A stretch of DNA of 58,512 nt from a virus (Duplodnaviria > Caudoviricetes): positions 1 through 58,512 of the IMG/VR virus record IMGVR_UViG_3300044646_001108; one strand, written 5' to 3'. The translations under genes were made by a program, and so were the position numbers. This document shows, in pieces, positions 8,488-57,714 of the stretch. The notes below the pieces were generated by a model that was not told the DNA's origin, searched no databases, and was given only the letters and a program-made list of their open reading frames with translations. Within the stretch, counting starts at the first letter, position 1. Every line of letters begins with the position of its first letter.

Positions 8488-8726
8488 GCAGAGCCGTTGC
8501 TTGGTACAGCCCAGCCACCGGGCTGCTGATGACCGAAGGTGAGTACATCCTGCGACAGGCAAACTCAGCGCAGTTTCCTGCGGACTTGACCCCGCTGGTG
8601 TGGGAGCGCGAGGTCGAGGAGTACCAACGGCTGTTTGCCGAGTGTCAGCAACAGCTGGAAAACACGATCTGTGCCCTGGAGTCAGCCAAGGCGGAGCTTC
8701 AAAAGATCATGGCGGAGGTCCTATGA
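8484..8726 (+). CDS. Hypothetical coiled-coil protein
   Basis: ATGA overlap, GGAG RBS. Confidence 0.5.
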   Translation: MSRAVAWYSPATGLLMTEGEYILRQANSAQFPADLTPLVWEREVEEYQRLFAECQQQLENTICALESAKAELQKIMAEVL

Positions 8727-9034
8727 ACAGCTTCTCAGCCGTGGAGATTGAGGTGATCCGCTGGTCGGAGGCTCGCGGGATCATCGCCAACAGCGACAGC
8801 AAGACACAGCTGTTGAAGGCGTTCAGCGAGATGGGCGAGTTGGCTGACGCCGTCAATAAACGAGATATGCCTGGGATCAAAGATGGGATAGGCGATGTGC
8901 TGGTGTGCCTGATCAATGTCGCCGCGCTCGAAGACCTGGACCTTACTCGCTGCCTGATCCACGCCTACAACGAGATCAAGAATCGCAAGGGCTACCTCAA
9001 CAAAGAGGGGGTATTCATCAAGGAAGCGCCATGA
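8723..9034 (+). CDS. MazG-like nucleotide pyrophosphohydrolase
   Basis: QLLKAFSEMGELADA...DGIGDVLV...AYNEIKNRKG. Confidence 0.85.
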   Translation: MNSFSAVEIEVIRWSEARGIIANSDSKTQLLKAFSEMGELADAVNKRDMPGIKDGIGDVLVCLINVAALEDLDLTRCLIHAYNEIKNRKGYLNKEGVFIKEAP

Positions 9035-10948: not shown

Positions 10949-13900
10949 TTAACGCGGCTCCCCTGCCTGACGCTGGATGGCGTAGAACTCCTTGTTGAAC
11001 TCCGACTCCAGCTTTCTCCGCTCCTTGTCGATGAACTGGAGCCTGTCGTACTGCTCGCGACGCGACAGGCTCTTGTTGTCGCGGATGTCGATCTCCTCCT
11101 TGCGCAACAGCGACAGCTGTTTGACGATGAAGCGCTGAGAGGAATCAAGCTGGGCGAATAGTTCGTTCTCCCTGATCCGAGCCCGAGCGTTGGCGGATGC
11201 GTTGTCAGACTCGGCGTTCTGAAGCTCAGCCTTGGCTTCCTTCACCCGCTGGCTGTTCTCGAAGAATGACGACTGGTCGCCACGACCCGTGTCCCTGCGG
11301 TAGAACGCCTTGAGGATCGGGTAGGCGTTCTTGTCCAGAGCGGCGTCAGGTCCGACATTCAGGGACAAGTCAACAGCTGTGATGGTGTCCTTGACGAACG
11401 TGCCAGCACCGCCGGTTGTGAACGTCAGCAGGTACGAGAGCGTCTCTGGGCTGACATCAACCTTACCGCTCTTGCCTGGGCTTCCGCCCGTGGCTTCGTT
11501 CATCCAGGTGGTGAACCGCTGCAGGAACGTGTCCCTTGTGTTCGTCCAGTACCGCTCGCTGTCCGGCGTTGCGCCGCCTTTGTAGTCCGGCGGCAGCAAA
11601 GGCATGCCGTTCTCGCGCTTCTCAGAGGTAAGCACGATGAATGGATCAACAATCGTCGGCGACACAAACGTTGCGGCGTTGTCCGCTGCACCAAGCGGGC
11701 TGAAGTGAGTGAAGAAGCTGTCTCGCATGAACGCGGCAACTTTCCACGGGTCACGCCCCCGCTCCAGGTCCTTCATGGCGTAGCCAAGGTTCACGAAGAA
11801 GCCCAAGCCGTAGGCGAGAGGAACCGTGTACTGCTCTCCGTTGGGTCCAAACCACATCAGGTTCTTGAGCTTGGCAGAACGGTTCGACTCTTTGTCCCAG
11901 TACGGGTCATCGTCATCCCCAGCCGCACCAGCAGCCATCGTGGCAACGATGTACCCCAAGCCAACGAGCGAGCCAGCCAAAGCCCCGCCCTTCTTGGACA
12001 TCACCAGCTTGCTCACCGACACTGCGCCCTGAATGGCGGGGTTGATGAACAGGTACAGCGGCGCAAGGAACGGAGTCATCTTGCCCCTACGGTTGAAGTT
12101 CACCGTGAGGTTCTTGGCGACCGTCGCAGCCTCTTCGCGCACCGCCTTGGGTGCATTGGTGTGGTTGTACCCGGCGCGCTCGATCACGCTCTTGTAGGCT
12201 GCAACTCGGGCTGCGTTTTCGATGCCTGCGTTGACATCCATGATCAGGTCTTCTGCAGACTGCAGGTATCGCAGCGCCAGACGGTGGTACGTGCGCGGCT
12301 CCTTGAGAGAAGCTTGAGCGTTGCGATAGTCGGAGATCACGCGCTGCTGGCGCTGCTCCAAGCCGACCAAGTCCATGAACCCAGTCTTACCGCCATCAGT
12401 CCTGTACATGTCGTAGTAGGCGCGAAGCTCTGGGTTACCAGCCCAGTTGTTGTTCCGCTCCGCCCGCATGACGGAGTAAGCAACCGGCATGAAGTCACGC
12501 CAGATGTCTATGGTGGCTTTGCCGCCGCGCTCAACAGCTGTTTTCGCTGTTGCGTACTCCAGGTCTCGACCGGCGTTGATCAGCACGAACGCAGGCGAGA
12601 GCGCAGTCCACAACTTGCCAAGCGTTCTGTTGATGGAGCCGAACACTCCCAGATAAACCTCTGCCAGCTTGCCGCTCAGCAAAGGCGTCATCTGCAGGTC
12701 AGACAGAAGACCGGGGTCGTTGATCCTGATGCTGCGCGGAACGCCGTTCACCCGAACGCCAATCGTGTTCACGCCTTCGTCCTTGACCAGGGCGTAGTCG
12801 ACGATGTTGTTGGTCTTGTTCCAGCGCTTTTGCATGACCATCGGGTCAACATCCCAAAGCGCCGAGTCGGGGTTCTGCAAGAAGAATTTCAGCACAGCCT
12901 GACGCAGCTTGTTCTTCTCAGCTGCAACGATGGCTTCCTCATAGTCCTTGAGGATGTTCTCAACGATCTGACCAGCGCGTGAGCCGCGTCCCATTGCCCT
13001 GCGGAAGAACGGGTCGCGGGGGTCGAAGCGCGGGTTGCCGGTCGCCTTGCCCTCGGCAATACGCTCGAAGCCTTTGAGCGGCACGTAGTACTGCCAGCCA
13101 GAGCGCCAGGACTGCAGGGTTGCGTTGTCGATCAGCCCGCCATCAAGCAGCGTTTGCCCAGTAAGGCGGGTGATGGCTTGGAACCTGTCGGCAATCGATT
13201 TGATTTTGGCGAACTGGGCACCCTTCGCTTGCAATGAGGCGATGACGGACTGAGCGTCAGCGTTGGACATGCCAGACCCGTCGCCCGCGAACTGCGGGTT
13301 GATAGACGCGATGTGCGCATTGCGCTCTGCGGCGTGGTTGGCATACATGTACAGCGCCACGTCGTTCAGGTCCACGCCTTGTTGAGCAGCCTCCTGGATC
13401 AGCGGGCGCACAACGTTCTTGCGGAAGTCGTCGATGCGGTTACCAGCCCTACCGTGCATGCGGTGCAGGGAGTTCTCGATGTTCGTCTCTTCGGTCACCA
13501 CGCCACCTTGCGCAACAACCTGCTGTTGAACATCTGTCGCCCTGCTTACTTCATTGGCAAGCATGTTGGACACGCGCTCCGTCATTGTCCGCTCGCCAAG
13601 GGCAAAGCGATTGCCTTGTAGCGAGACCTGACGGGCGAAGTTGCTGTTGGACAGCGGTTGGAACTGGCGATTCGGGACCTGACCTGGGGCTTTGCTGCCA
13701 ACAGCCGCTGTTCTGCTGAGCGACGGGAGCTTGTTTCCAATCTTGGAAGCCAGCGCCAAAGCCTTGCCTTTGTGGAAGTACAACAGCTGTCCGGTGCGGG
13801 TGAGTTCGCCGTTGGTTTCGGCAAGCGAGCGGTCCTCGTTCATCGGGTACACCGACGCGATCTGCGTAGCCCGGTCATCTCCGTAACGCACATCCGGGTG

Positions 13901-16900
13901 GACGATAGCTACAACCGGGTTGCCGTCTTTGACCAGATCGAGCAGCACCTTGTACCCATACCGGCGACCAGCGCGGTCCCCTTCGCTTCGGAATACAGCG
14001 ACAGGGTCGGCGATCTGCCTTGGCACGTCACGCAACTCATCAACCGTCAGGGCGATGCGAGCCTTGACTGGGACCACCATGCCAACCGTGTTTCGGCGGA
14101 CCGCATCTTCGGTGTTCTTGCCGAACATGCCTGGGTTCACGACCTTCATCACAGTCGCCGGGTCCATGACCACCAACTGGTCGGGTGAGCCAACAGCCTT
14201 CAGAACAGCTGGCGTCTTCGAGATGCCAAAGACGCGGGGTGCGCGCGGGTCTCCGTCGGCAGCAAGTTGCACATCCCTGCGGCTGAACTGACCAGCCTCA
14301 GTAAGGGCAGGCTTCTCCGCGCGCTGGGTTATCTCAGTCCTAGTGCCCTCGTAGTCGACAGGAACATCATGGTTGAGGATGACCATCATCCCCATATTCG
14401 GCACGGCGTAACCGTCGTAACCGGCGTCGACGATTGAGGACTCAAACGCATTGAAGTCCTGCTGCGACGCGCGATACAGGCGACTCATGTCATCGCCTGG
14501 AGCGAGGATGTTGTCGAACTGCTGCGAGTAGACGTACTGACCTAGACCGGACTCGGCGCGGGGCATGCGCCCCATGTCGTTTTCGATGTAGAAGTAGACC
14601 CTGCGCTTAATGCGAGGATCGCCTGAACCATCAAGGCGCCGCGCTTCGGCTCCCTTGATCCCGGTGCCGTAACGGTTTCCGACTAAGGTTTCGGTGCGGG
14701 CGTTTCCGTAGTGGACCCCGACGAAGCTGCTCGCTCCTGGCTGAGCTTCTCCGAGTATTCTCCCGCCGCCTGTGCCGGATCGAATGGGAGGTTGGTCAAG
14801 TCGAACGACTCGGCTTGCTGCGGCTGGTTGCCAGGAGACTGTTCCGTCACCGGCGACGTCGACGCGCGATGGAGCGTACCGACGCTGTAGCTGTTCGCTT
14901 TCTTGTAGTCTTCCTCGGTTGCGGAGCGAATTGAGGTAAACGTCGCCATTCGGACTCTCCTTCCAGTCGTTCTTGGTGGACTCAAGAACCACCTGTTTGG
15001 TATTGATGTCTGTTAATTTTACACCAAGAGAATCCTCTGTGGTATTGATTGCGCGTAGGATTTCGGCGACCTGGGTCTGCCTCCAGTTCCCCGCGAAGTT
15101 CAGCAGACGAATACCTGGGACCCCGTCAACAACGATCTGCTGGAAGCCGGGGGCAAGGATGTTGCCCTCCTTGTCCTTGGGTGCCGACTCCAGGAATTTC
15201 GCAAAAAAGCTGGTTGCTTGGTCAACCGTCTTCAGGTCCGGGGACATGACGTCAATCGCCATGTTCTTGCCTGATGCAAGGGGGCGTGTGCTGATGACCT
15301 CGGTTTGCTGGAACGCATAGCCAACCATGTCCATGAAGTCGGATACGGCTTCTGGGCTTGCCAGCGCATCGATCTGGATTGCGCCCTCAATCCACTGCAG
15401 GTACGCACCGACTCCGGATACGTTCTGTCTGACTCGGATTCCAGCGAGGTCGGCAAGAAAGCTGATCTCGCGCTGAGCAACATCAACCGGAATCTCTTTG
15501 CCAGCAAGCTTCCCGGCAAGAACAGAGTCCGCTCCTGGTGCAAGTCCAATAGACACACGGCGAGTGTTACCGCCGATGATGTCGCGGACAAACTCAGCCC
15601 GGATGCCCATCGCCCGCTGCATGGTGACCCAGCCAACAGCCTGGACCTCTCGCGCAGTCCAGCCCCCGCCATCAAAGTTGCGGCTGTTGAGAAAGTCGAC
15701 GACGTCGTTGTAGAAATCAATGCCGTACTCGTACTGCGACTCGCCTGTCGTTGTCTTGTCTGGAGCCAGCTGTTGAACAGCCTCATCGCCGAAGCGCTTG
15801 CGCAGAAACTCGAAGACCGTCTCGTCGACAAAGCCGATGTCGCGAGTCGCCCAAACATCGATAGCTGCGGGCTGGCGACCGCGCGGATCATCCTTTACGA
15901 TTGTTCTGGTGCTGCGCCCAAGCTCGCTGTCCAGGAAGTCCATCAGCTTGGCGCCAATTCCACCCTCTGGCATCCGACCAGAAAGGATGTCTATCAGCGC
16001 GTCTTGGTTCAAGCCAGCCTTCTTGACCTCTTGCTTTCCAGCAGCCATGTCAGCTGCGCGTAAGACGTCAGTCATGCCTTTCGTTGGGCTTGCTCGCTTC
16101 TGCGACATCAGCCAAGCCAAAGCGTATTGAGGAGTCGTGCCCCCAAATACAGGGCGAAGAGCTTCATCAAGCTGCCGATACCAGCTTCGCGAGTCCTTGA
16201 GTTCCTCCGATGACAGGAGAAGCTGGACCCGGTCAAGCCAGTCTTGGGCGGTGATCTTGCCCAGCACCAACTTTTGATTGCCGCTGCCAAACTCAACCCG
16301 GTCGTTGACCGGGGAGCCAACGCCATCCTTTCTCTTGAGACGGCGGGCAATCCGACCCTCAGCCTCTTGCGCATCAACTGTCGGGCTCAGCGGGTTTGCG
16401 GGCTCGACGGGGAGTCTACGCTGAGCTTGTACCGATACCTGTTGCTGTGGTACACTCTCATTAGGGATTGCTCTAGGAGACGACAAAGTGGCATCAATAC
16501 CAACCTCGTTCCCCGCTGGGACGACGTTCTTCGACGTCGGCGGCGTCCCTGTCACTCGCGCACCCAACGGCGGGCTCTCTGCTTGGGACGACAACCCTCG
16601 AACTGGAGAGACGGCACCGCGAACATTCGGGCTATCGACCTGGACATCAGAGGGGGTGCCCATGTCAGAGGCTGACTGGCGAGCCCTGTTCACCCGGTCG
16701 AACACCTCTTCTGCGGCTTCCGAGTAAATCTCGAACTGCTCGCGCTCAAGCTCATTGATCTTGTCCTGCGCCGCCGACAGGTCCCCAGGGGACATCGGGT
16801 TCTCGCGGCTGCTCATCGCACGGCGAAGCTTCTCTGCCTGCTCGTACAGCTTGTGGGCTACACCCTTCGCGTCCAGCATCTGAGCGAAGTTCATCTGTAG

Positions 16901-19900
16901 CTCGACCGGGAAACCGGCGATCTGCGCACCCTTGAAGAACACGTCGCGGTATCCGCTGGGGTGAACTGGCGCGGCAGGGTCCCAGCCATTGCGCTTCACA
17001 ACAACGCCAGGGAAGAACGACGTAACCGCGTCGATCATGTTGTCCAGTTCACGCAGGTCTTCGACAACCAGCGTCGAGCGGACAACGTCACCGATCTTGG
17101 TGTGGTCCCCGCCGTAGTCGAACCAAATCTTGCCGAACGCGCGGGGAAACTTCTTGATGGGACCGGCTTGCAGGGTCATGCCTTCGCGGTCCGCAACCCT
17201 GAGCATGCGCGTGTCGTAGCGAGCCTTGATGGTTGGCGCGCGAGCCAGAAGCGCCTTGGTGTTCTGGTAGACCTGGAAGATGTCTTGCTCAGCCAGCAAG
17301 ACCGTAGCGGGGATGTTCCTGCCTTCGACCAGCGCAGTGACCAGCTGTTCACGCGGAGGCGGGGGCGGCTCTCTGCGCTTAGCCTGCGGCGCCGCGCCAG
17401 TTGCTGACTGGGCGCCACCAAACGTCACAGTTGGCGCGCTCATCTGGTAACCCGAGTACATCGGGAACCTGCCCAAAGAAGCTGGCGCTGCCTGCGACGA
17501 CTGGAAACTCCCGGTCCCTACACCCGTAGCACCGGGCTGAGCAGGCTGCGCAGCAGATGTTACGGGCGCGACACCACCCCTGGCAACCACTGCAGCCAAG
17601 GCGGGCGGCATAGAAGACTTCGCTGCCTCGCGCTTCTGGTATTCCTTGAACGCATTGACGATGGCTTCCCGAGCCTGGATGACTCGCTGCCGATCCTTGA
17701 TGTACTGAGGACCGCGCAGGGCTGCGCTCAACTTGTTCAGGATGTCGACCAGGATGTCTTTGAACTGTTGAGCAAGGGTCTTGTCCTGGAAGCTGTCGAA
17801 CAGCCTGTTGAGAAGCTGTGGATCGGTGGCTTGCTGACCGACCGTGTAAGCCACCAGTTCAGACTCAAGCTCTTGTTGAGTCATCGGGCGACCAACCTCG
17901 CGCATCCGCGACGCGTTCAGGCTGTCGAACAGCCGTTGCTGCATCTGCGGGTCAACAGCCTTGACCACCGCATCGCGAAGCGCCTTGTAGACGTCGGCGT
18001 AACGGGTCTCCAGGACGTGGGTCAACTCATGCCACGTCGTGTCCATCAGATCGGCATTGGCTCCAACCAGGATGGTGTCGCCTACACGGTAGCCATTGAA
18101 CGCACCGAGGTTGCGGGTCTCGCCAGCCTCGTTGGTGACAGTCATCCCCTGCTCGCCAAAGTCCACCCAGTGAACGTTGACCCCAAATGCCTGAGCGAGA
18201 GCCTTGGCGAAGGTGTTCAATCGCTTGTCTGAAGTGACCTCCGTCACATTCAGCTGCTCTCCAGGGTTGACGCCGAGGTCCTGCCCAATGCTTGCCAGCG
18301 CATTGGTCAAGGTTTCCGGCTGGGATTGCTGCTGGCTAACAGCTGTTCCCAGTGCCTGTTGATTTCGGGCGTCTACCTCGTCCAGCATCTGCTGCAGGTC
18401 GTTCTGGTCCACGGTTCCCGCAGCGCTGACGTCGGACCGCAGGCTCATGGGCTGAGCCTGTGGCTGAGCCTGACCCAAATTCAAATCGGAATTTTGACCA
18501 GGGACAGCTGTTGACAGCTGTTGATCTGCTGTTGCCCCAGGAAGGTTTTGATCAAGGTCGCCGAGCGCGGGGTCTGTACGCTCACCACCTGCCATCACGC
18601 CTTGGGCGAATGCATCGAGGTCAACCGACGGCTCCACCCGTCCACGGTTGTAGCGGTCATCAGGGTTGGGAATGTCATTGACCAGACCTTGCGGCGAGAA
18701 CGGGTCAGCCGCCGGTGGCGCGGCGAGCGGATCAAAACTTGGATCAACTCGACCACGGTCGTACCGAGCATCAGGACCTGGGGTGTCGTTGACGATTGCG
18801 CCCGGCTTGATGAGGTTCTCGACAGCGGTCGGCGTTCCTCGGTTGGGGTCTAGGGCGGAGATCGCCTGTTGACCAGTCTGCACATCATCGAAGCTCCGAC
18901 TCTCAACGCCGCGATCAATTGCGTCGGCAATGCGCTGCTCGTTCGTTGGGATTGCGGCACGAACGGCGCCGACCGGACCGCCGCCGATTGCCCCAAGGAC
19001 AAGGTTTGCAGCAGAGCCTTCGCCGATCTCTTTGTTCTCGATCTGGGACCGAATGCCGATGTCAGCCGCAACGCCTTCACCAACTTCCTGGACGCCTTCT
19101 TCAAGCGCACTGGCGCTGCCGCCAACAGCCACGCGACCCGCCACGGTTCTGCCACCGACGCGAGCCAAAAGATCGTCATACGCGCCCGTGACGAGCTTGC
19201 CAGTCACCCTGCCGCCAAGCGCCGCGACCATCCCCTGAAGGACCGCAGCGCTCTCGCCAGCTTTGTCGGTCACGATCCTGCGAGCCTCTGCTTGCGGAAT
19301 CTTCCGATCAATCATCGCCTTGTAGTAGGGGCTGACTTCCAACAGCTGTTGATGGCTCAGCTTGCCGATGTACTCCTTGGCTGAGTTCACGCCTTCGCCA
19401 GCAGCCATGCCGCCGCCGACAGCTGCAGCTGCGTTTGGGTTCCTGGTGACAATTGCAGTTGCCACAACCGGAGCCAGCGAACCCAAAACACCAACGGCTT
19501 GCAGGGCGTAGCCCGCCACCGTTGGGTCGTCGCCCCAGCTGAACTCACCCTTGAAGATGTTGCCCTTCGGCTCAGCGCCAGCCATGCGACGCTTGCCCTC
19601 TTCGGACATGCCAGCAAGGATGTCTTTCTGAACCTTGTCGCCGTAGTTGGCGAGGGCGTCGGTCCCTGGAACACTGACACCAGATAGCGCACGGTCGACG
19701 GCGATCCTCGCCTGTTGCTTGTCCTCCATCTGATCTTGAATGGATCGGATGCCAAGCGCATCCATCAGCGCCATGCGGGCATAGTTAAACAGCCGCATCC
19801 CAGGCGTCCCCTTGTCCATGATGTCGCCAGTCGCAACGTCACGAACAATGCCCTTGACTCCACTCTCGACACCCTTGGGAGCCCGCAGGGTCCCGCCAAC

Positions 19901-20410
19901 AAGACTTCCTGTGCCAACGCGAGCAGCGTCGCCCACAAACTCGCCAACGCTGTAGTCCTGTGAAGTGCCAGCCGTGCCGCCGAACTCAGGCGAAACACCG
20001 TCTGGCATACCGGCTTGCGGCTCTGCTGGTAACGCGCTGCGACTGACCTGGGGCTGCGCAGGAGCGGCAGAAGCTGCAGAAGCGGCTGGTCTGGAAGCCT
20101 GGGCGGGGGCGGGAGCGACTCTTTGCTGTTGTTGAACAGCTGTCGGTATTGCTTGCGCGCGAGCGGGCGGCGGTGTGTCTGCAACAGGCAGAGCCGGGTC
20201 AGGAAGAGGCGGAGCAGCTGGCTTCACCCCACCGACGTTTGCGCGGCGCAGAATCCGAATAGACAGATCGTCTGTCGCCTCGGAGCCGCCAGTAATTGCC
20301 TCAGAAGTCTGGGCTGCAGCAGCATCTTGCATAGCCGCAGCACGACGACCCGGCTCACCAGTAATGCCTGCCCGACGCAGGACCCGGTCTTCAAATGACA
20401 GTTCGCTCAT
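10949..20410 (-). CDS. Large polyvalent virion/ejection protein (metallopeptidase, RelA/SpoT-like, HhH-like, ART-like, MuF-C/PBECR-like, LPD38-like domains)
   Basis: 3153 aa, last gene of the ejection cluster. Motifs: WHELTH; GPIKKFPRAFGK...GDVVRST...SGYRD...VELQ...AHKLYE; VHYG...RVYFY...GYDGY; IADPVAVF...IASVY; NLTVNFNRRG...LFINPAIQG. Confidence 0.85.
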   Translation of the reverse strand: MSELSFEDRVLRRAGITGEPGRRAAAMQDAAAAQTSEAITGGSEATDDLSIRILRRANVGGVKPAAPPLPDPALPVADTPPPARAQAIPTAVQQQQRVAPAPAQASRPAASAASAAPAQPQVSRSALPAEPQAGMPDGVSPEFGGTAGTSQDYSVGEFVGDAARVGTGSLVGGTLRAPKGVESGVKGIVRDVATGDIMDKGTPGMRLFNYARMALMDALGIRSIQDQMEDKQQARIAVDRALSGVSVPGTDALANYGDKVQKDILAGMSEEGKRRMAGAEPKGNIFKGEFSWGDDPTVAGYALQAVGVLGSLAPVVATAIVTRNPNAAAAVGGGMAAGEGVNSAKEYIGKLSHQQLLEVSPYYKAMIDRKIPQAEARRIVTDKAGESAAVLQGMVAALGGRVTGKLVTGAYDDLLARVGGRTVAGRVAVGGSASALEEGVQEVGEGVAADIGIRSQIENKEIGEGSAANLVLGAIGGGPVGAVRAAIPTNEQRIADAIDRGVESRSFDDVQTGQQAISALDPNRGTPTAVENLIKPGAIVNDTPGPDARYDRGRVDPSFDPLAAPPAADPFSPQGLVNDIPNPDDRYNRGRVEPSVDLDAFAQGVMAGGERTDPALGDLDQNLPGATADQQLSTAVPGQNSDLNLGQAQPQAQPMSLRSDVSAAGTVDQNDLQQMLDEVDARNQQALGTAVSQQQSQPETLTNALASIGQDLGVNPGEQLNVTEVTSDKRLNTFAKALAQAFGVNVHWVDFGEQGMTVTNEAGETRNLGAFNGYRVGDTILVGANADLMDTTWHELTHVLETRYADVYKALRDAVVKAVDPQMQQRLFDSLNASRMREVGRPMTQQELESELVAYTVGQQATDPQLLNRLFDSFQDKTLAQQFKDILVDILNKLSAALRGPQYIKDRQRVIQAREAIVNAFKEYQKREAAKSSMPPALAAVVARGGVAPVTSAAQPAQPGATGVGTGSFQSSQAAPASLGRFPMYSGYQMSAPTVTFGGAQSATGAAPQAKRREPPPPPREQLVTALVEGRNIPATVLLAEQDIFQVYQNTKALLARAPTIKARYDTRMLRVADREGMTLQAGPIKKFPRAFGKIWFDYGGDHTKIGDVVRSTLVVEDLRELDNMIDAVTSFFPGVVVKRNGWDPAAPVHPSGYRDVFFKGAQIAGFPVELQMNFAQMLDAKGVAHKLYEQAEKLRRAMSSRENPMSPGDLSAAQDKINELEREQFEIYSEAAEEVFDRVNRARQSASDMGTPSDVQVDSPNVRGAVSPVRGLSSQAESPPLGARVTGTPPTSKNVVPAGNEVGIDATLSSPRAIPNESVPQQQVSVQAQRRLPVEPANPLSPTVDAQEAEGRIARRLKRKDGVGSPVNDRVEFGSGNQKLVLGKITAQDWLDRVQLLLSSEELKDSRSWYRQLDEALRPVFGGTTPQYALAWLMSQKRASPTKGMTDVLRAADMAAGKQEVKKAGLNQDALIDILSGRMPEGGIGAKLMDFLDSELGRSTRTIVKDDPRGRQPAAIDVWATRDIGFVDETVFEFLRKRFGDEAVQQLAPDKTTTGESQYEYGIDFYNDVVDFLNSRNFDGGGWTAREVQAVGWVTMQRAMGIRAEFVRDIIGGNTRRVSIGLAPGADSVLAGKLAGKEIPVDVAQREISFLADLAGIRVRQNVSGVGAYLQWIEGAIQIDALASPEAVSDFMDMVGYAFQQTEVISTRPLASGKNMAIDVMSPDLKTVDQATSFFAKFLESAPKDKEGNILAPGFQQIVVDGVPGIRLLNFAGNWRQTQVAEILRAINTTEDSLGVKLTDINTKQVVLESTKNDWKESPNGDVYLNSLRNRGRLQESEQLQRRYAPSRVDVAGDGTVSWQPAAASRVVRLDQPPIRSGTGGGRILGEAQPGASSFVGVHYGNARTETLVGNRYGTGIKGAEARRLDGSGDPRIKRRVYFYIENDMGRMPRAESGLGQYVYSQQFDNILAPGDDMSRLYRASQQDFNAFESSIVDAGYDGYAVPNMGMMVILNHDVPVDYEGTRTEITQRAEKPALTEAGQFSRRDVQLAADGDPRAPRVFGISKTPAVLKAVGSPDQLVVMDPATVMKVVNPGMFGKNTEDAVRRNTVGMVVPVKARIALTVDELRDVPRQIADPVAVFRSEGDRAGRRYGYKVLLDLVKDGNPVVAIVHPDVRYGDDRATQIASVYPMNEDRSLAETNGELTRTGQLLYFHKGKALALASKIGNKLPSLSRTAAVGSKAPGQVPNRQFQPLSNSNFARQVSLQGNRFALGERTMTERVSNMLANEVSRATDVQQQVVAQGGVVTEETNIENSLHRMHGRAGNRIDDFRKNVVRPLIQEAAQQGVDLNDVALYMYANHAAERNAHIASINPQFAGDGSGMSNADAQSVIASLQAKGAQFAKIKSIADRFQAITRLTGQTLLDGGLIDNATLQSWRSGWQYYVPLKGFERIAEGKATGNPRFDPRDPFFRRAMGRGSRAGQIVENILKDYEEAIVAAEKNKLRQAVLKFFLQNPDSALWDVDPMVMQKRWNKTNNIVDYALVKDEGVNTIGVRVNGVPRSIRINDPGLLSDLQMTPLLSGKLAEVYLGVFGSINRTLGKLWTALSPAFVLINAGRDLEYATAKTAVERGGKATIDIWRDFMPVAYSVMRAERNNNWAGNPELRAYYDMYRTDGGKTGFMDLVGLEQRQQRVISDYRNAQASLKEPRTYHRLALRYLQSAEDLIMDVNAGIENAARVAAYKSVIERAGYNHTNAPKAVREEAATVAKNLTVNFNRRGKMTPFLAPLYLFINPAIQGAVSVSKLVMSKKGGALAGSLVGLGYIVATMAAGAAGDDDDPYWDKESNRSAKLKNLMWFGPNGEQYTVPLAYGLGFFVNLGYAMKDLERGRDPWKVAAFMRDSFFTHFSPLGAADNAATFVSPTIVDPFIVLTSEKRENGMPLLPPDYKGGATPDSERYWTNTRDTFLQRFTTWMNEATGGSPGKSGKVDVSPETLSYLLTFTTGGAGTFVKDTITAVDLSLNVGPDAALDKNAYPILKAFYRRDTGRGDQSSFFENSQRVKEAKAELQNAESDNASANARARIRENELFAQLDSSQRFIVKQLSLLRKEEIDIRDNKSLSRREQYDRLQFIDKERRKLESEFNKEFYAIQRQAGEPR
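16427..16456 (+). promoter_or_regulatory. Internal antisense sigma70 promoter
   Basis: TTGTAC-18-TACACT with extended -10 (TGgTACACT), 31 nt upstream of GTG 16488. Confidence 0.55.
16488..16727 (+). CDS. Candidate nested antisense gene, 79 aa (putative immunity/antitoxin)
   Basis: Own promoter and AGGAGA RBS 7 nt before GTG. Globular-looking sequence (FFDVGGVPV...AWDD...PRTF...PMSEADWRALF) opposite an S/P/G-rich linker of the host ORF. Confidence 0.6.
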   Translation: MASIPTSFPAGTTFFDVGGVPVTRAPNGGLSAWDDNPRTGETAPRTFGLSTWTSEGVPMSEADWRALFTRSNTSSAASE

Positions 20411-53523: not shown

Positions 53524-53535
53524 TTGGAGGTCATC

Positions 53536-54768
53536 ATGGAAATTCAGCATCTCTCGAAGCCGCAACTCAACGAAGTCCTGCGCCGGGTCACTGGCAAGGG
53601 GCGAGACATGGCTCGCAACTCCAAGGAGGATTACCTCGACGCCCTGGCGTCGTGTTCCGCCGAGTCGGTCACCAGCGCGGTCCAGTCCCTGGGGCTGATC
53701 GCTGGCTCCTGGGCGGTCCAGGCTGCTGCTCCAGCGCCAGCTGTTGAACAGCTGCCCGAGATCAAGCCGGTCCGGGTCGCAACCCTGGGTCAGATTTTCG
53801 GAGTCCGGGGCAAGCTCGCCTCGACCGAGATCGAGGTCTGGAATGACCCGGCTGCTCCGACCCTGGACCCGCTCTACAAGTTCGACATCGACGCCCTGCA
53901 CTCCGCTGCAGTCGCGATCAAGCGCGGACGCAACGTCTGGCTGGCTGGTCCCGCTGGCACTGGCAAGACCGAGTTCGTCAAGAACCTCTGCGCGGGTCTC
54001 GGTCGCGCCTTCATCCGGATCAGCTTCGACTCCGGCGCTGAGCGCTATGAGTTCATCGGCGGCGAGCGCGTCAAGAACGGCTCCACCGTCTACCAGGAAG
54101 GCGTCGTGCTTCGCGGCATGCAGCGCCCTGGCGCGGTGATCCTGCTCGATGAGGTCAGCTTCGCCCGCCCCGAGTACCTCTCAGCCCTCCACGCTCCCCT
54201 GGAGCCGGACGGCGCTGTTACGGTGCCCGAGACCGGGCAGGTGATTCGCAAGGCTCCCGGCGTCTGCTTCTTCGCTGCCGACAACTCGAACGGTCGCGGC
54301 GACTTCTCTGGCATGTACGTCGGCATTCGCGAGCAGAACGTCGCGTTCGTCAACCGCTTCGCCAAGACCCTGGTCTTCAGCTACCTGAAGCCCGAGCTTG
54401 AGTCGAAGGTGATTGCCGCGCGCTCTGGCTGCACCGTCGAGCTTGCGGAGGTGATCGTCAGCTTCCTCACCGTCTGCCGTCAGGCTGGCGATCAGGCTCA
54501 GCTTGATCACATTCCTACCCTGCGCGAGGCGTTCTACCTCGCCGAGGGTCTGACCGACGGTCAGGAGTACCGCAAGGCGTTCGAGGAGACGATGGTCAAC
54601 CGCGCCTCTCCCGAGTCTGCAGAGGTCCTGCAGCAACTCTGGAAGGCGAACGTCTCGGACGTTGCCATCGAACGGGCTCTCAACCCGCAGAAGTACAGCA
54701 ACGCCCCTGCTGCCGACCCCGGCTGGTCGAACATGACCAGCGACGGCGAAATGTCACTGGCTGCTTAA
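53536..54768 (+). CDS. MoxR/CobS-like AAA+ ATPase
   Basis: GPAGTGKT, LLDE, AADNSNGRGD, NRF. Confidence 0.88.
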   Translation: MEIQHLSKPQLNEVLRRVTGKGRDMARNSKEDYLDALASCSAESVTSAVQSLGLIAGSWAVQAAAPAPAVEQLPEIKPVRVATLGQIFGVRGKLASTEIEVWNDPAAPTLDPLYKFDIDALHSAAVAIKRGRNVWLAGPAGTGKTEFVKNLCAGLGRAFIRISFDSGAERYEFIGGERVKNGSTVYQEGVVLRGMQRPGAVILLDEVSFARPEYLSALHAPLEPDGAVTVPETGQVIRKAPGVCFFAADNSNGRGDFSGMYVGIREQNVAFVNRFAKTLVFSYLKPELESKVIAARSGCTVELAEVIVSFLTVCRQAGDQAQLDHIPTLREAFYLAEGLTDGQEYRKAFEETMVNRASPESAEVLQQLWKANVSDVAIERALNPQKYSNAPAADPGWSNMTSDGEMSLAA

Positions 54769-54781
54769 CCTGGAGGTCAAC

Positions 54782-56887
54782 ATGGCAAATCAAATCATTG
54801 GCGCTCGCGTCAAGGCTGCAGCGCTTGTCCACGCCCAGAAGCAACTAGGCAACCTGGGCTTCCGGTTCAAATCCGGCGCTGGCTCCGCAACCTTCCACGG
54901 CGAGACTGCCTACGCCGCCTGGGAGGCTGGCGCTGGCGACTGGGTTGGCGCTTTCCGCATCAACTACCCAGAGATGCCCGACAACGCCCTGGTCAGCCGC
55001 CGCGAGGCGGACCTGATCAGCGCGTACACGCTGCATGAGATCGGACACGTCGCCTACACCGAGGCGAAGGTCACCAGCGGCAAGGCTGCGCTCATCCACT
55101 ACCTGTACAACGGGATCGAGGATGGGCGCATCGAACATGCGGTCATTGCCAGCGGCAAGGCTCGCGGTGCGCGGTCGATGTTCAAGCGCCTGATGTCGAA
55201 GTTCACTAGCAAGATCGTTGCTGGCGGCGACTTCAACCCGACGTCAATCAACAGCGCCCCATTCGCCTTGGCTTTGGTCTCACGCGCCGCTCTGGGCGAT
55301 GGCAACGGGTTCGCGAAACAGCTGTTGTCTCGCATCCCGGAGCCGTACCAGTCGCTCTACGCAGCCGCTGCGGACGGCATCAAGTCTGCCCCGCTCGACC
55401 GCTCCGGCTCTGCCGTCTCGCTCAGTCTGGCTCAGCAGTTCCTGGATGGCTGGCTGCGCATCAACCCGGACGCCCTCAGCCGCCCAGCCGCTCCCCCTCC
55501 CCTGGGCGAGCCCCAGGATGGCGAGGGCATCTCGATACCGGGTGGCGAGGGCGATCAGGACGGCGACCCCGCCGAGTCCGCTCTGCCGAGTCAACTGGAG
55601 GAGGAACAGCCCGACAGAGACGGTCCCAGCGGTCACTGGTCGCCGCCTGATCGCGACCTTTTTGACGCCGACAACTACGGCGACGGCGACGGCGACGGGT
55701 TCGACGACAACGATGAACAGCTGTCTCCCGAGGAGCAAGCCGCAGCTGAGGCTGACGCCAAGGAGCGCGACGAACTTGCGGAGCAGATGGCTGGCGCTGC
55801 CGAGGCGGCACCAGAGGCTGACGACAGCATTCTCAGCGCCCTGCCGGAGTCCGACTCGGACGACGACGAAGGCGGTGACAGTGTTGGCGAGCCGTTCCAA
55901 GCCCTGGATCAGCAGGACAACTTCGATGAGGGCAAGGTCATCAAGCCCGAGCCCGAGGTCGACGATGTCTTCAAGTCGATTCGCGAACGCACCCGCGATG
56001 CGGTCACGCTCCGGTCTGTCCCGGTTGCCAACCGCAGCGAGATGCGCAAGTGGAGCAAGCTGCAGGACTTGACCGACAAGACCCGCAAGTCGCACCTCAA
56101 GAAGCTCAACCGCCACGCGATGCCTGCTCTCAAGGCTCAGCTGTACCGGGTCCTCAAGGCTCCGGAGCGCTGCGGCTGGGACGGCGGCGCGATGGGCGGT
56201 CGCTTCGACGGCAAGCGCGCACCGCGCATGCTGGCTGGCAGCGAACAAGTCTTCAAGCGTCGCTGGCTTGCTGAGGGCATCGACACCGCCGTGTCGGTTG
56301 TCATCGATCTGTCCGGCTCGATGCAGGGCAGCACCATCGACTCTGCAGTCGACCTCGCCTGGACCATCGCCCAGGCTTGCGAAGGCGCTCGCGCTGACGT
56401 CGAGGTTGTCGGGTTCCAGAACGCAAGGTATCCGGTCTACACGGGCGGCTACGACATGCGAGGCGATTGGCACTCGGCTCAAGGCAACAGCGACTGCACC
56501 TTGGTGGTCGCCAAGCGGTTCGCTGACCGCTGCGAGTCAGTCGCCCATCACTTCCAAGTGATGAAACGACTGCCTGACATGGGCACCCCTGACTATGAGG
56601 CATGCAAGACGGTTGTCGAACAGCTGTCCGAGATGCCGCACAAGCGCAAGGTTGTGATCATGGTCACCGACGGCTGCGGAGACGTTGCCGACATGCGCCG
56701 CCTAGGAGAGGGAGCCTGGAAGCTGTACGGCGTAGACGTGATTGGCTTCGGCATCCACGTCAGCGCTCAGCAGTTCGCCCGCGCCTACCCGGTCGGCTCT
56801 CCAGTCAGCCTGGACTCGCTCCACAAGACGGGTCTCAAGGGTGTCGTCAAGCAGCTGGAGTCGCGCGATCAGCGCCGCGTCATCTAA
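54782..56887 (+). CDS. CobT-like protein: HExxH N-domain, acidic linker, VWA domain
   Basis: LHEIGHVAYT...NGIEDGRIE; DLSGSM MIDAS; GTP; VTDG. Confidence 0.88.
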   Translation: MANQIIGARVKAAALVHAQKQLGNLGFRFKSGAGSATFHGETAYAAWEAGAGDWVGAFRINYPEMPDNALVSRREADLISAYTLHEIGHVAYTEAKVTSGKAALIHYLYNGIEDGRIEHAVIASGKARGARSMFKRLMSKFTSKIVAGGDFNPTSINSAPFALALVSRAALGDGNGFAKQLLSRIPEPYQSLYAAAADGIKSAPLDRSGSAVSLSLAQQFLDGWLRINPDALSRPAAPPPLGEPQDGEGISIPGGEGDQDGDPAESALPSQLEEEQPDRDGPSGHWSPPDRDLFDADNYGDGDGDGFDDNDEQLSPEEQAAAEADAKERDELAEQMAGAAEAAPEADDSILSALPESDSDDDEGGDSVGEPFQALDQQDNFDEGKVIKPEPEVDDVFKSIRERTRDAVTLRSVPVANRSEMRKWSKLQDLTDKTRKSHLKKLNRHAMPALKAQLYRVLKAPERCGWDGGAMGGRFDGKRAPRMLAGSEQVFKRRWLAEGIDTAVSVVIDLSGSMQGSTIDSAVDLAWTIAQACEGARADVEVVGFQNARYPVYTGGYDMRGDWHSAQGNSDCTLVVAKRFADRCESVAHHFQVMKRLPDMGTPDYEACKTVVEQLSEMPHKRKVVIMVTDGCGDVADMRRLGEGAWKLYGVDVIGFGIHVSAQQFARAYPVGSPVSLDSLHKTGLKGVVKQLESRDQRRVI

Positions 56888-57213: not shown

Positions 57214-57714
57214 ATGAAGATCGATGAACTTGCCCTGGTCATTGCCGAGCGCGCTCACCGCGAGGCTGTCAGGGCTGACGGTGTCACGCCGTACATTGCC
57301 CACCCGATGGTGGTCGCCGCCGTTGTCCGCGCTTCAGGCGGAAACGAAACAGCTGTTGCTGCAGCCCTGCTGCATGACGTAATCGAGGACACCCCGATGA
57401 AGCCTTCGGAACTCATCGAGCTTGTAGGCGAGGAGGTCGCAGACCTTGTGGTCGAGTTGACCTTCCCAGCCAACATGCCAGACCGCAGGCGGCGGATGAT
57501 CGAGAGAGTCCCTTCGATGAGCCCAGTGGCTAGGCTGATCAAGCTTGCCGACATTTACTGCAACCTCTCAGACCTGCCCAGGTCTGGCTGGGATGCGGAC
57601 AAGGTGGCTCGGTATTACCGGCACCTGCTGGCTATGCGCGTGGCTTTGGCTGGAACCCACCCCGTGCTTGAACGGGCGTTCGACGATGTCGCCGAGAAGT
57701 TCCCTGTCGCGTAG
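57214..57714 (+). CDS. Mesh1/SpoT-type HD hydrolase (small alarmone hydrolase-like)
   Basis: PYIAHP, AALLHDVIEDT, VVELT, IKLADIYCN. Confidence 0.88.
   Translation: MKIDELALVIAERAHREAVRADGVTPYIAHPMVVAAVVRASGGNETAVAAALLHDVIEDTPMKPSELIELVGEEVADLVVELTFPANMPDRRRRMIERVPSMSPVARLIKLADIYCNLSDLPRSGWDADKVARYYRHLLAMRVALAGTHPVLERAFDDVAEKFPVA

Follow-up and report, generated by a model that had tools for sequence, protein, structure and literature searches.

The virus record IMGVR_UViG_3300044646_001108 (Duplodnaviria; Caudoviricetes) raises the question of whether a toxin domain and the protein that protects against it can be encoded by one stretch of DNA, each on its own strand. The window, i.e., the entire stretch of 58,512 nucleotides (nt) analyzed here, carries on the minus strand the gene of a polyvalent virion protein of 3153 amino acids (aa) (10949..20410), which fully encloses a plus-strand open reading frame (ORF) of 79 codons (16488..16727). 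Judged from sequence comparison, this ORF is a genuine gene, which lies antisense in the polyvalent gene behind a Tas1/Apk-like domain and encodes a cytoplasmic protein of 79 aa. The explanation preferred here, with a probability of about 0.62, is that it is a Tis1-type immunity gene nested antisense inside the gene of its own toxin, the two constituting a mobile cassette. Such an arrangement would be a novel means of encoding a toxin together with its immunity, and would explain the safe carriage and shuffling of an internal toxin domain between virion proteins. No description of a nested antisense arrangement was found in the library searched, including the main texts on related systems. Well-supported antisense protein genes are rare and disputed in bacteria and phages; for the one described here, the evolutionary signal has been replicated, related proteins form a family, and the fold is predicted with confidence.

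The original prediction, made from the letters alone, had identified a promoter, a ribosome-binding site (RBS), a GTG start codon, and the 79-aa ORF on the plus strand, and each of these elements is confirmed. A weak −35-like hexamer, TTGTAC (16427..16432, 3/6 match), is separated by an 18-nt spacer from the hexamer of an extended −10 element, TGgTACACT (16448..16456), in which TG occupies 16448–16449 and TACACT occupies 16451–16456; a further 18 nt leads to the Shine–Dalgarno (SD) sequence AGGAGA (16475..16480), GTG follows after 7 nt at 16488, and the ORF ends with TAA at 16725–16727, which overlaps sense Tyr1229. The assignment of the ORF to the shared-wobble frame was also correct, as the first, second, and third positions of an antisense codon face sense position 2, sense position 1, and position 3 of the preceding sense codon, respectively. 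In this frame, an antisense stop codon requires a sense Tyr, or a sense His or Gln after a T-ending codon, and when the sense protein and the local codon usage are taken into account, the frame is expected to be free of stops with a probability of 0.42 in the window and 0.23–0.80 per locus in its relatives, in agreement with the earlier caveat that the ORF alone is weak evidence. Furthermore, 27 antisense stretches within the giant gene run for at least 79 codons from stop to stop, seven of them in the frame of the nested ORF, and the open frame as proof of a gene was dismissed as weak. Long antisense ORFs of up to 425 aa, e.g., at 11705–12982 on the plus strand, occur mostly in the codon-on-codon frame of the giant gene, which holds only 28 stops in 3153 codons. 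The promoter matches the consensus at 7/12 positions and was missed by a consensus scan. The composite pattern TGnTAnAnT / 17–19 nt / AGGAG / 5–9 nt / RTG, set post hoc from the site itself, occurs once in the window, both strands counted, at the nested ORF, against a mean of 0.005 in 200 Markov-1 simulations. By themselves, neither the ORF nor the promoter exceeds what chance would give, and it is the comparative evidence that sets the nested ORF apart.

Related loci were obtained in two ways. Searches with the sense domain led to three locus groups, i.e., L001 (95% identity; same record as L002), L003, which equals L004 (64%), and L005 (63%), and a scan of IMG/VR with the family alignment gave 10 loci, comprising two records already known and eight new ones. 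The resulting 12-locus set, consisting of the window and 11 others, is a set of few and related loci. The antisense frame is open in 11/11 other loci, in the same phase and directly behind the same Tas1-like domain, and GGAG is located 5–10 nt ahead of ATG or GTG in 12/12 loci, the start codon aligning with the family N-terminus; both features are among those whose conservation the original prediction had proposed to test. In L003, the antisense frame terminates five codons early. All eight new viral loci carry the small ORF nested antisense in the same phase, within host ORFs of 1014–3089 aa. The same observations may be read as no protein gene at all, i.e., as an ORF open by chance in a Tyr-poor, GC-rich linker, whose "family" would be the antisense shadow of the sense peptide TG.P.TS.N.VP.GN, called on contig fragments. 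The likely openness of the frame and the 27 long antisense stretches are both consistent with this explanation, as are the conservation of the sense linker at the level of the domain (0.65–0.69 vs. 0.64), the coupling of the frames, by which both translations co-vary, and the fact that the new viral matches are without exception nested again. It is nevertheless very improbable, owing to the selection acting on the two frames and to further evidence described below.

All possible and all observed changes were classed by their effect on the sense protein first and on the antisense protein second, as synonymous (S) or non-synonymous (N), and the ratios SN/SS and NS/SS were calculated with 95% confidence intervals from column bootstraps. 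In a first set composed of the window, L003, and L005, SN/SS was 0.35 (0.19–0.60) in the overlap (sense residues 1230–1306) and 1.05 (0.84–1.28) in the adjacent domain (residues 1032–1227), a control in the same frame relation, whereas the NS/SS ratio of 0.52 (0.27–0.84) in the overlap indicates that the sense frame is still somewhat constrained. Along 40-codon sliding segments, SN/SS was 0.75–1.53 for starts at 1030–1190, 0.53 at 1210–1249, a segment that straddles the ORF end, 0.22–0.23 over 1230–1289, and 0.53 at 1270–1309, so that the selection signal is restricted to the ORF; an additional control in the shared-wobble frame, at residues 709–927 of the window and L003, gave 0.84. The other four alternative frames provided no usable selection signal. 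Antisense identity was 56/80 in both comparisons, whereas synonymous resampling gave 47.1 ± 2.3 and 44.5 ± 2.5 (z 3.95 and 4.58), the z values of the domain control being 0.25 and 1.25. The replicate comprised the eight further loci only (28 pairs), and gave an SN/SS of 0.43 (0.28–0.62) and an NS/SS of 0.93 (0.80–1.07) in the overlap vs. 0.84 (0.72–0.95) and 0.57 (0.46–0.69), respectively, in the domain. Four disjoint replicate pairs gave values of 0.48 vs. 0.78; single pairs are noisy, and the intervals of two of eight include 1. Third positions taken as a whole are no more conserved inside the overlap than outside it (0.41 vs. 0.54, 0.35 vs. 0.40, and 0.35 vs. 0.37), and overall synonymous-site conservation was rejected as a test, as only class-specific tests have power in this frame.

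The comparison of substitutions in the two frames, which had been proposed together with the original prediction, consequently shows a depletion of antisense-altering changes in both sets (0.35 and 0.43 vs. 1.05 and 0.84), and the accompanying claim that the antisense protein carries the constraint is borne out by the replicate, in which sense-only changes reach 0.93 in the overlap and 0.57 in the domain. In the replicate set, the protein under selection in the overlap is the antisense one, the sense "linker" behaving as a passenger. A chance-open frame is difficult to reconcile with this depletion of antisense-only and not of sense-only changes, and with individual residues, i.e., Trp (three sites), Met, Leu, and Arg, that survive replacements on the sense side through coordinated or double substitutions. 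The three antisense Trp residues are retained with the codon ahead of each sense Gln always ending in C, antisense Leu is retained via CTN/TTG with a coordinated change in the neighboring codon, and antisense Arg is retained through a switch from CGA to AGG, by which sense Arg becomes Leu.

The start signals of the nested gene are conserved at the nucleotide level. In the upstream alignment of the window, L001, L003, and L005, the invariant elements are CTGTGnTAnAnT, AGGAG, and the TG of the start codon. The extended −10 columns C46, T47, G48, T49, G50, T52, A53, A55, and T57 are invariant in the four-locus alignment A5, and variation is confined to the "n" positions although the sense residues differ there (P/T/A, V/I, and S/N/T). 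The −35-like TTG is kept in three of the four close loci (the window, L003, and L005) and lost in L001. The 7-nt spacing between the SD sequence and the start codon is kept in L003 and L005 despite sense deletions of one and two codons, the start codon (ATG) having shifted; this movement of the start, which offsets the indels, and the retention of GGAG at sense-synonymous T-ending codons argue further for a protein gene and against a frame open by chance. A conserved antisense gene with its own RBS, together with an extended −10 element in the subgroup of the window, is hence backed by both the loci and the selection. A conserved promoter-like element antisense to a long late gene could alternatively belong to an antisense regulatory RNA acting on the polyvalent or late transcript, with the ORF being incidental, and the absence of any listed plus-strand terminator-like site at 15751–19700, the interval containing the ORF, was also counted in favor of this possibility. 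We regard it as highly unlikely, because what is constrained is the amino-acid sequence of a single frame, with transversions missing only at antisense two-fold sites, because the SD sequence and start codon are conserved at a fixed spacing, because homologous proteins exist elsewhere, and because the third positions are otherwise saturated (pSS 0.76–0.88), which is incompatible with an RNA structure.

The 79-aa protein belongs to a wider family. A profile of four antisense proteins (A3) searched against 1.84 billion representatives gave 50 matches at E ≤ 1e-3, seven at E ≤ 1e-10, and none at E ≤ 1e-30, and a search among longer proteins added five members; a word-based search with the 79-aa protein gave a single match, a 94% twin. 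Members are mostly 62–150 aa long, match from their first residues, in some cases contain tandem duplications, and share the motif LP.SFP.GT.F.DV.G.PV ... AWD ... PR.F ... G..SE..FR. In one protein of 431 aa (P0079), the antisense-type domain is followed in one frame by a hydrophobic/transmembrane (TM) segment and then by Pfam TPR repeats, and this in-frame fusion to genuine TPR repeats again argues against an antisense shadow. Among 47 members searched against Pfam, none had a match covering the domain, the two weak matches being unrelated and below threshold, and neither NCBIfam nor PHROGs matched any of 37 members. One member is the NCBI "hypothetical protein" WP_462081207.1 of Luteimonas sp., and the cluster names are otherwise "hypothetical protein". 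The small-domain family is thus, as far as such searches indicate, undescribed and unannotated, and the present analysis defines it as a small-protein family without a Pfam, NCBIfam, or PHROG entry.

The wider distribution of the family also bears on the origin of the nested gene. The original prediction had called the gene overprinted; in the sense of a de novo birth in the linker, this is not upheld, as the domain is also found in free-standing proteins, including the fusion with TM and TPR segments, and the sense frame is unconstrained. More probably, an immunity gene that had once been convergent was already in place, and the giant ORF was later extended through it, which would account for both the free sense frame and the family members in other contexts. 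The large ORF of L006, L008, L011, and L012 stops approximately 80–100 residues past the nested gene, with the toxin domain near the C-terminus; these short tails may represent an intermediate state.

The structure predicted by AlphaFold2 with 37 family sequences (mean predicted local distance difference test (pLDDT) 83.7; predicted template modeling (pTM) score 0.70) comprises a β-hairpin, two more short strands, and two helices, one of them short and the other C-terminal, and its pLDDT is a further point against a chance-open frame; the prediction with four sequences (pLDDT 59.5) was excluded from fold searches. When 48,161 PDB chains were compared with the model by VIA-align, rank 1 was 6OX6_B, i.e., Tis1 (76 residues), with a Z of 4.1 and a root-mean-square deviation of 4.4 Å over 59 aligned residues (model 7–74 vs. 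chain 8–77) at 7% identity. Tis1 was the one chain named in advance by the hypothesis. In a second look at the 374 best chains of Foldseek, Tis1 was again rank 1, the next chain having a Z of 2.7. The ESM Atlas gave no usable match. BcTis1 itself shares just 24% identity with Tis1 (PMC10083569).

The sense domain preceding the linker is, from its sequence matches, a relative of Tas1, the (p)ppApp-synthesizing type VI effector. Its RelA-SpoT-homologue pyrophosphokinase core is encoded at 16859..17275 on the minus strand (sense residues approximately 1046–1184) and matches Tas1 (6OX6_A) with an E value of 2.8e-8 as a single sequence and of 1.8e-14 with a seven-sequence profile (profile positions 17–155). 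Tas1 is the sole PDB match of the domain at E ≤ 0.01, and the positions of the D..R, GY, and E.Q motifs line up with it. Pfam RelA_SpoT (PF04607) does not match the domain of the window even at E ≤ 10, and the copy in L006 scores 23.7 bits, below the cut-off of 27. RelA/SpoT domains in polyvalent and MuF proteins have already been described (PMC5512222, PMC5576092). In P0017, which is available as a protein only (2164 aa), a Tas1-like domain is located at the extreme C-terminus (residues 2006–2156) with no linker; therefore, its partner gene, if any, must lie elsewhere.

The domain, its helical tail, and the "linker" with the antisense gene and its promoter form a conserved cassette block at 16445..17344 on the minus strand (sense residues approximately 1023–1322). 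Sense identity to L003 and L005 is 0.5–0.8 inside the block and at most 0.2 beyond residue 1322 (L001, L003, and L005), and in L005, it is low ahead of residue 1023 as well. Homology breaks off abruptly around residue 1322, a short way past the antisense promoter, and the domain, the small gene, and its start signals therefore move as one block. The host proteins differ in architecture across the related loci, with ddrB-ParB, ART-PolyVal, PBECR3, LPD3, LPD38, and MuF_C domains, while the small gene is in fixed linkage with the Apk/Tas1-like domain in 12/12 loci, nested antisense instead of downstream. The portable cassette of the original prediction is thereby supported in that the domain and the antisense gene travel jointly between polyvalent proteins of differing architecture. 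Between the window (16380–16445) and the otherwise 95% identical L001, divergence is complete just past the antisense promoter, L001 having another downstream module, so that a recombination breakpoint lies at the edge of the cassette.

Further occurrences were sought beyond IMG/VR. Neither blastn of the region nor tblastn of P0035, the window protein, or the domain matched any GenBank phage, plasmids gave no match, and the domain alignment found no locus in genome contigs. Two candidates derived from P0028 on genome contigs (L016 and L017) were rejected as spurious, being antisense frames of housekeeping genes with 0/2 profile matches. Among sampled whole genomes, none of 400 scored genomes in the class of G001 gave a match, and 1 of 401 in the phylum of G002 gave a weak partial match.

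The phage is temperate, with an integrase gene and a CI-like S24 repressor gene on the plus strand and the structural genes on the minus strand. It also encodes, at 57214..57714 on the plus strand, a small alarmone hydrolase (SAH) with a Mesh1/SAH-type HD domain, identified by PDB sequence matches (3NR1, E 8.1e-21; MESH1, 7.8e-20; the (p)ppApp hydrolase 7SMG, 5.2e-6) and by Pfam HD_4. A homologue of this hydrolase is present in 3/10 related viral records and in two of the three records that are at least 90% complete; G805, a complete record carrying L006, is without SAH and keeps the small gene. The SAH is possibly a second, enzymatic immunity, a tie to the cassette that we infer.

Granted that the gene is real and translated, its product may be something other than an inhibitor of the adjacent domain, such as a moron-type lysogen function (superinfection exclusion or anti-defence), a chaperone for polyvalent-protein assembly or packaging, or an interaction module with another target. 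The presence of the family outside this context, in tandem repeats and in TM and TPR or other fusions, its lack of any Pfam, NCBIfam, or PHROG annotation, the low Z of the Tis1 similarity, and the possibility that the phage SAH alone handles an alarmone product would all fit such a function. The strict 12/12 linkage to the same domain, while the remainder of the proteins differs, and the end of the homology block just past the promoter of the nested gene point instead to a partner of the domain, as does the fact that the top of 48,161 chains is the immunity protein of its closest solved relative; moreover, the small gene is retained in G805, where the SAH is missing. A product other than an inhibitor therefore appears rather unlikely.

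Several results weigh against a Tis1-type immunity gene or against parts of that reading. The Tis1 match is weak, as ranks 2–5 have Z values of 3.6–3.1 and no chain reaches a Z of 5, and a VIA-align Z under 8 may reflect merely a common arrangement. Foldseek returned nothing at E ≤ 1e-3 from the PDB and BFVD libraries, and the profile A6 yielded four chance-level matches at E ≤ 10 among the sequences of all PDB chains, Tis1 (6OX6_B) not being one of them. Two of the family proteins (P0026 and P0039) were absent from viral contigs, and no free-standing member could be placed beside a toxin gene, the DNA context of these members not being available. The GxN signature, given as the syn3 signature of adenosine-type enzymes in PMC12226406, is missing from the sense domain, in which GYRDVFF of the window (D-V-F) aligns with GYSGVNS of Tas1; "GYRD" is retained in 11/11 aligned loci. 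Because this signature is absent, the enzymatic product of the domain is uncertain, as is even its toxicity. With regard to expression, the −10-like hexamer lies only 1–9 nt from the SD sequence in six loci (L006–L008 and L010–L012), compared with 18 nt in the group of the window, too near for a leader, and the promoter claim is therefore limited to the subgroup of the window plus L015. Four RNA-library contigs of 151–160 nt from three riverine libraries match at 16548–17027, are strandless, in two cases lie outside the ORF, stem from runs that were themselves identified by means of this stretch, and are uninformative either way. Finally, late transcription of the opposite strand would be expected to oppose expression of the nested gene in lytic growth. 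The putative immunity function of the original prediction receives indirect support from the 12/12 linkage, from Tis1 as top match at Z 4.1, and from the parallel with Apk2, Tis1-like, and Aph1 modules.

The closest parallel is provided by the module of Apk2, a MuF-fused (p)ppApp synthetase, with IapK/BcTis1 and Aph1 in prophages, which likewise combines a phage virion-associated Tas1-like domain with a temperate context (PMC10083569, PMC12226406). Apk2 is always accompanied by a Tis1-like gene, whereas aph genes are variable (PMC10083569), and IapK works by occluding the acceptor site (PMC12226406); correspondingly, the small partner is constant here (12/12), and the HD hydrolase is variable (the window and 3/10 records). 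The immunity genes of the Apk2 modules follow the toxin gene, whereas the gene described here lies within it, is read from the other strand, and has a promoter and an RBS of its own; the toxin domain here is internal to a polyvalent protein of 1000–3150 aa and is without GxN, and the small protein is without detectable Tis1 sequence similarity. The Tas1-Tis1 (Apk1) pair of Pseudomonas aeruginosa (6OX6) includes the closest solved relative of the domain and the top structural match of the small protein, and differs in its delivery by a type VI secretion system with PAAR and in its adjacent immunity gene (PMC10083569); the fold match to it is weak here (Z 4.1, 7%). Experimentally supported antisense overlapping genes of bacteria similarly involve an embedded antisense ORF under alternative-frame purifying selection, although they are described as evolutionarily young and as having no functional tie to the host gene (PMC8850804, PMC9927249). 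By contrast, the nested gene described here is the constrained partner, belongs to a wider family, would be linked to the function of the adjacent domain, and is conserved over 12 loci down to 35–45% identity. The immunity genes of pore-forming colicins are located on the opposite strand and have their own constitutive promoter, so that the cell produces immunity even with the toxin gene silent; they are downstream of the toxin gene, not nested, and share no codons with it.

As an immunity gene, the nested ORF would act as follows. The 79-aa protein would bind the neighboring Tas1-like domain and block its acceptor site, and its own σ70-type extended −10 promoter would drive the gene on the strand of the repressor and integrase genes. 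Because it shares that strand, the nested gene would be expressed while the late operon is silent, i.e., in lysogeny or early infection. Early expression would shield the producing cell ahead of packaging of the toxin-bearing protein, lysogens would be shielded against toxin injected by related phages, and the phage SAH may contribute an optional second layer at the enzymatic level, in the way that Aph1 complements the immunity to Apk2. With the immunity gene placed on the complementary strand of the toxin DNA itself, recombination could not part the two.

More generally, polyvalent and MuF toxin genes may carry a hidden class of antisense-nested immunity genes, as unsplittable two-strand cassettes that are born by read-through and whose immunity protein is made, from the incoming or the resident genome, while late genes are silent, a generalization offered only tentatively. 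If it is true, an injected effector would be switched off after a short time and lysogens would be immune to kin; gene callers would systematically miss such genes, and other polyvalent domains might hide partners as well. The nested gene supplies a testable candidate partner for a phage-delivered Tas1-like enzyme, and it serves as a warning that the conservation of "linkers" in giant phage proteins may be due to what the other strand encodes.

The enclosing protein is a giant multidomain protein with Pfam matches to LPD38 (E 2.4e-21) and MuF_C (1.7e-11) and with matches to PHROG large-protein families, and the combination of LPD- and MuF-type domains is that by which polyvalent proteins are recognized (PMC5512222). 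Its residues 299–504 match the PHROG "virion RNA polymerase" (E 6.4e-15), and an HExxH-like motif, WHELTH, near residue 790 marks a further module. Elsewhere on the plus strand, a MazG-like nucleotide pyrophosphohydrolase (8600–9034) adjoins the integrase gene and could act on pyrophosphorylated nucleotides. At 53524–56887, on the same strand as the SAH gene, an ATPase matching the PHROG "porphyrin biosynthesis" is followed by a 701-aa CobT-like protein, and the two may form an ATPase-partner pair.

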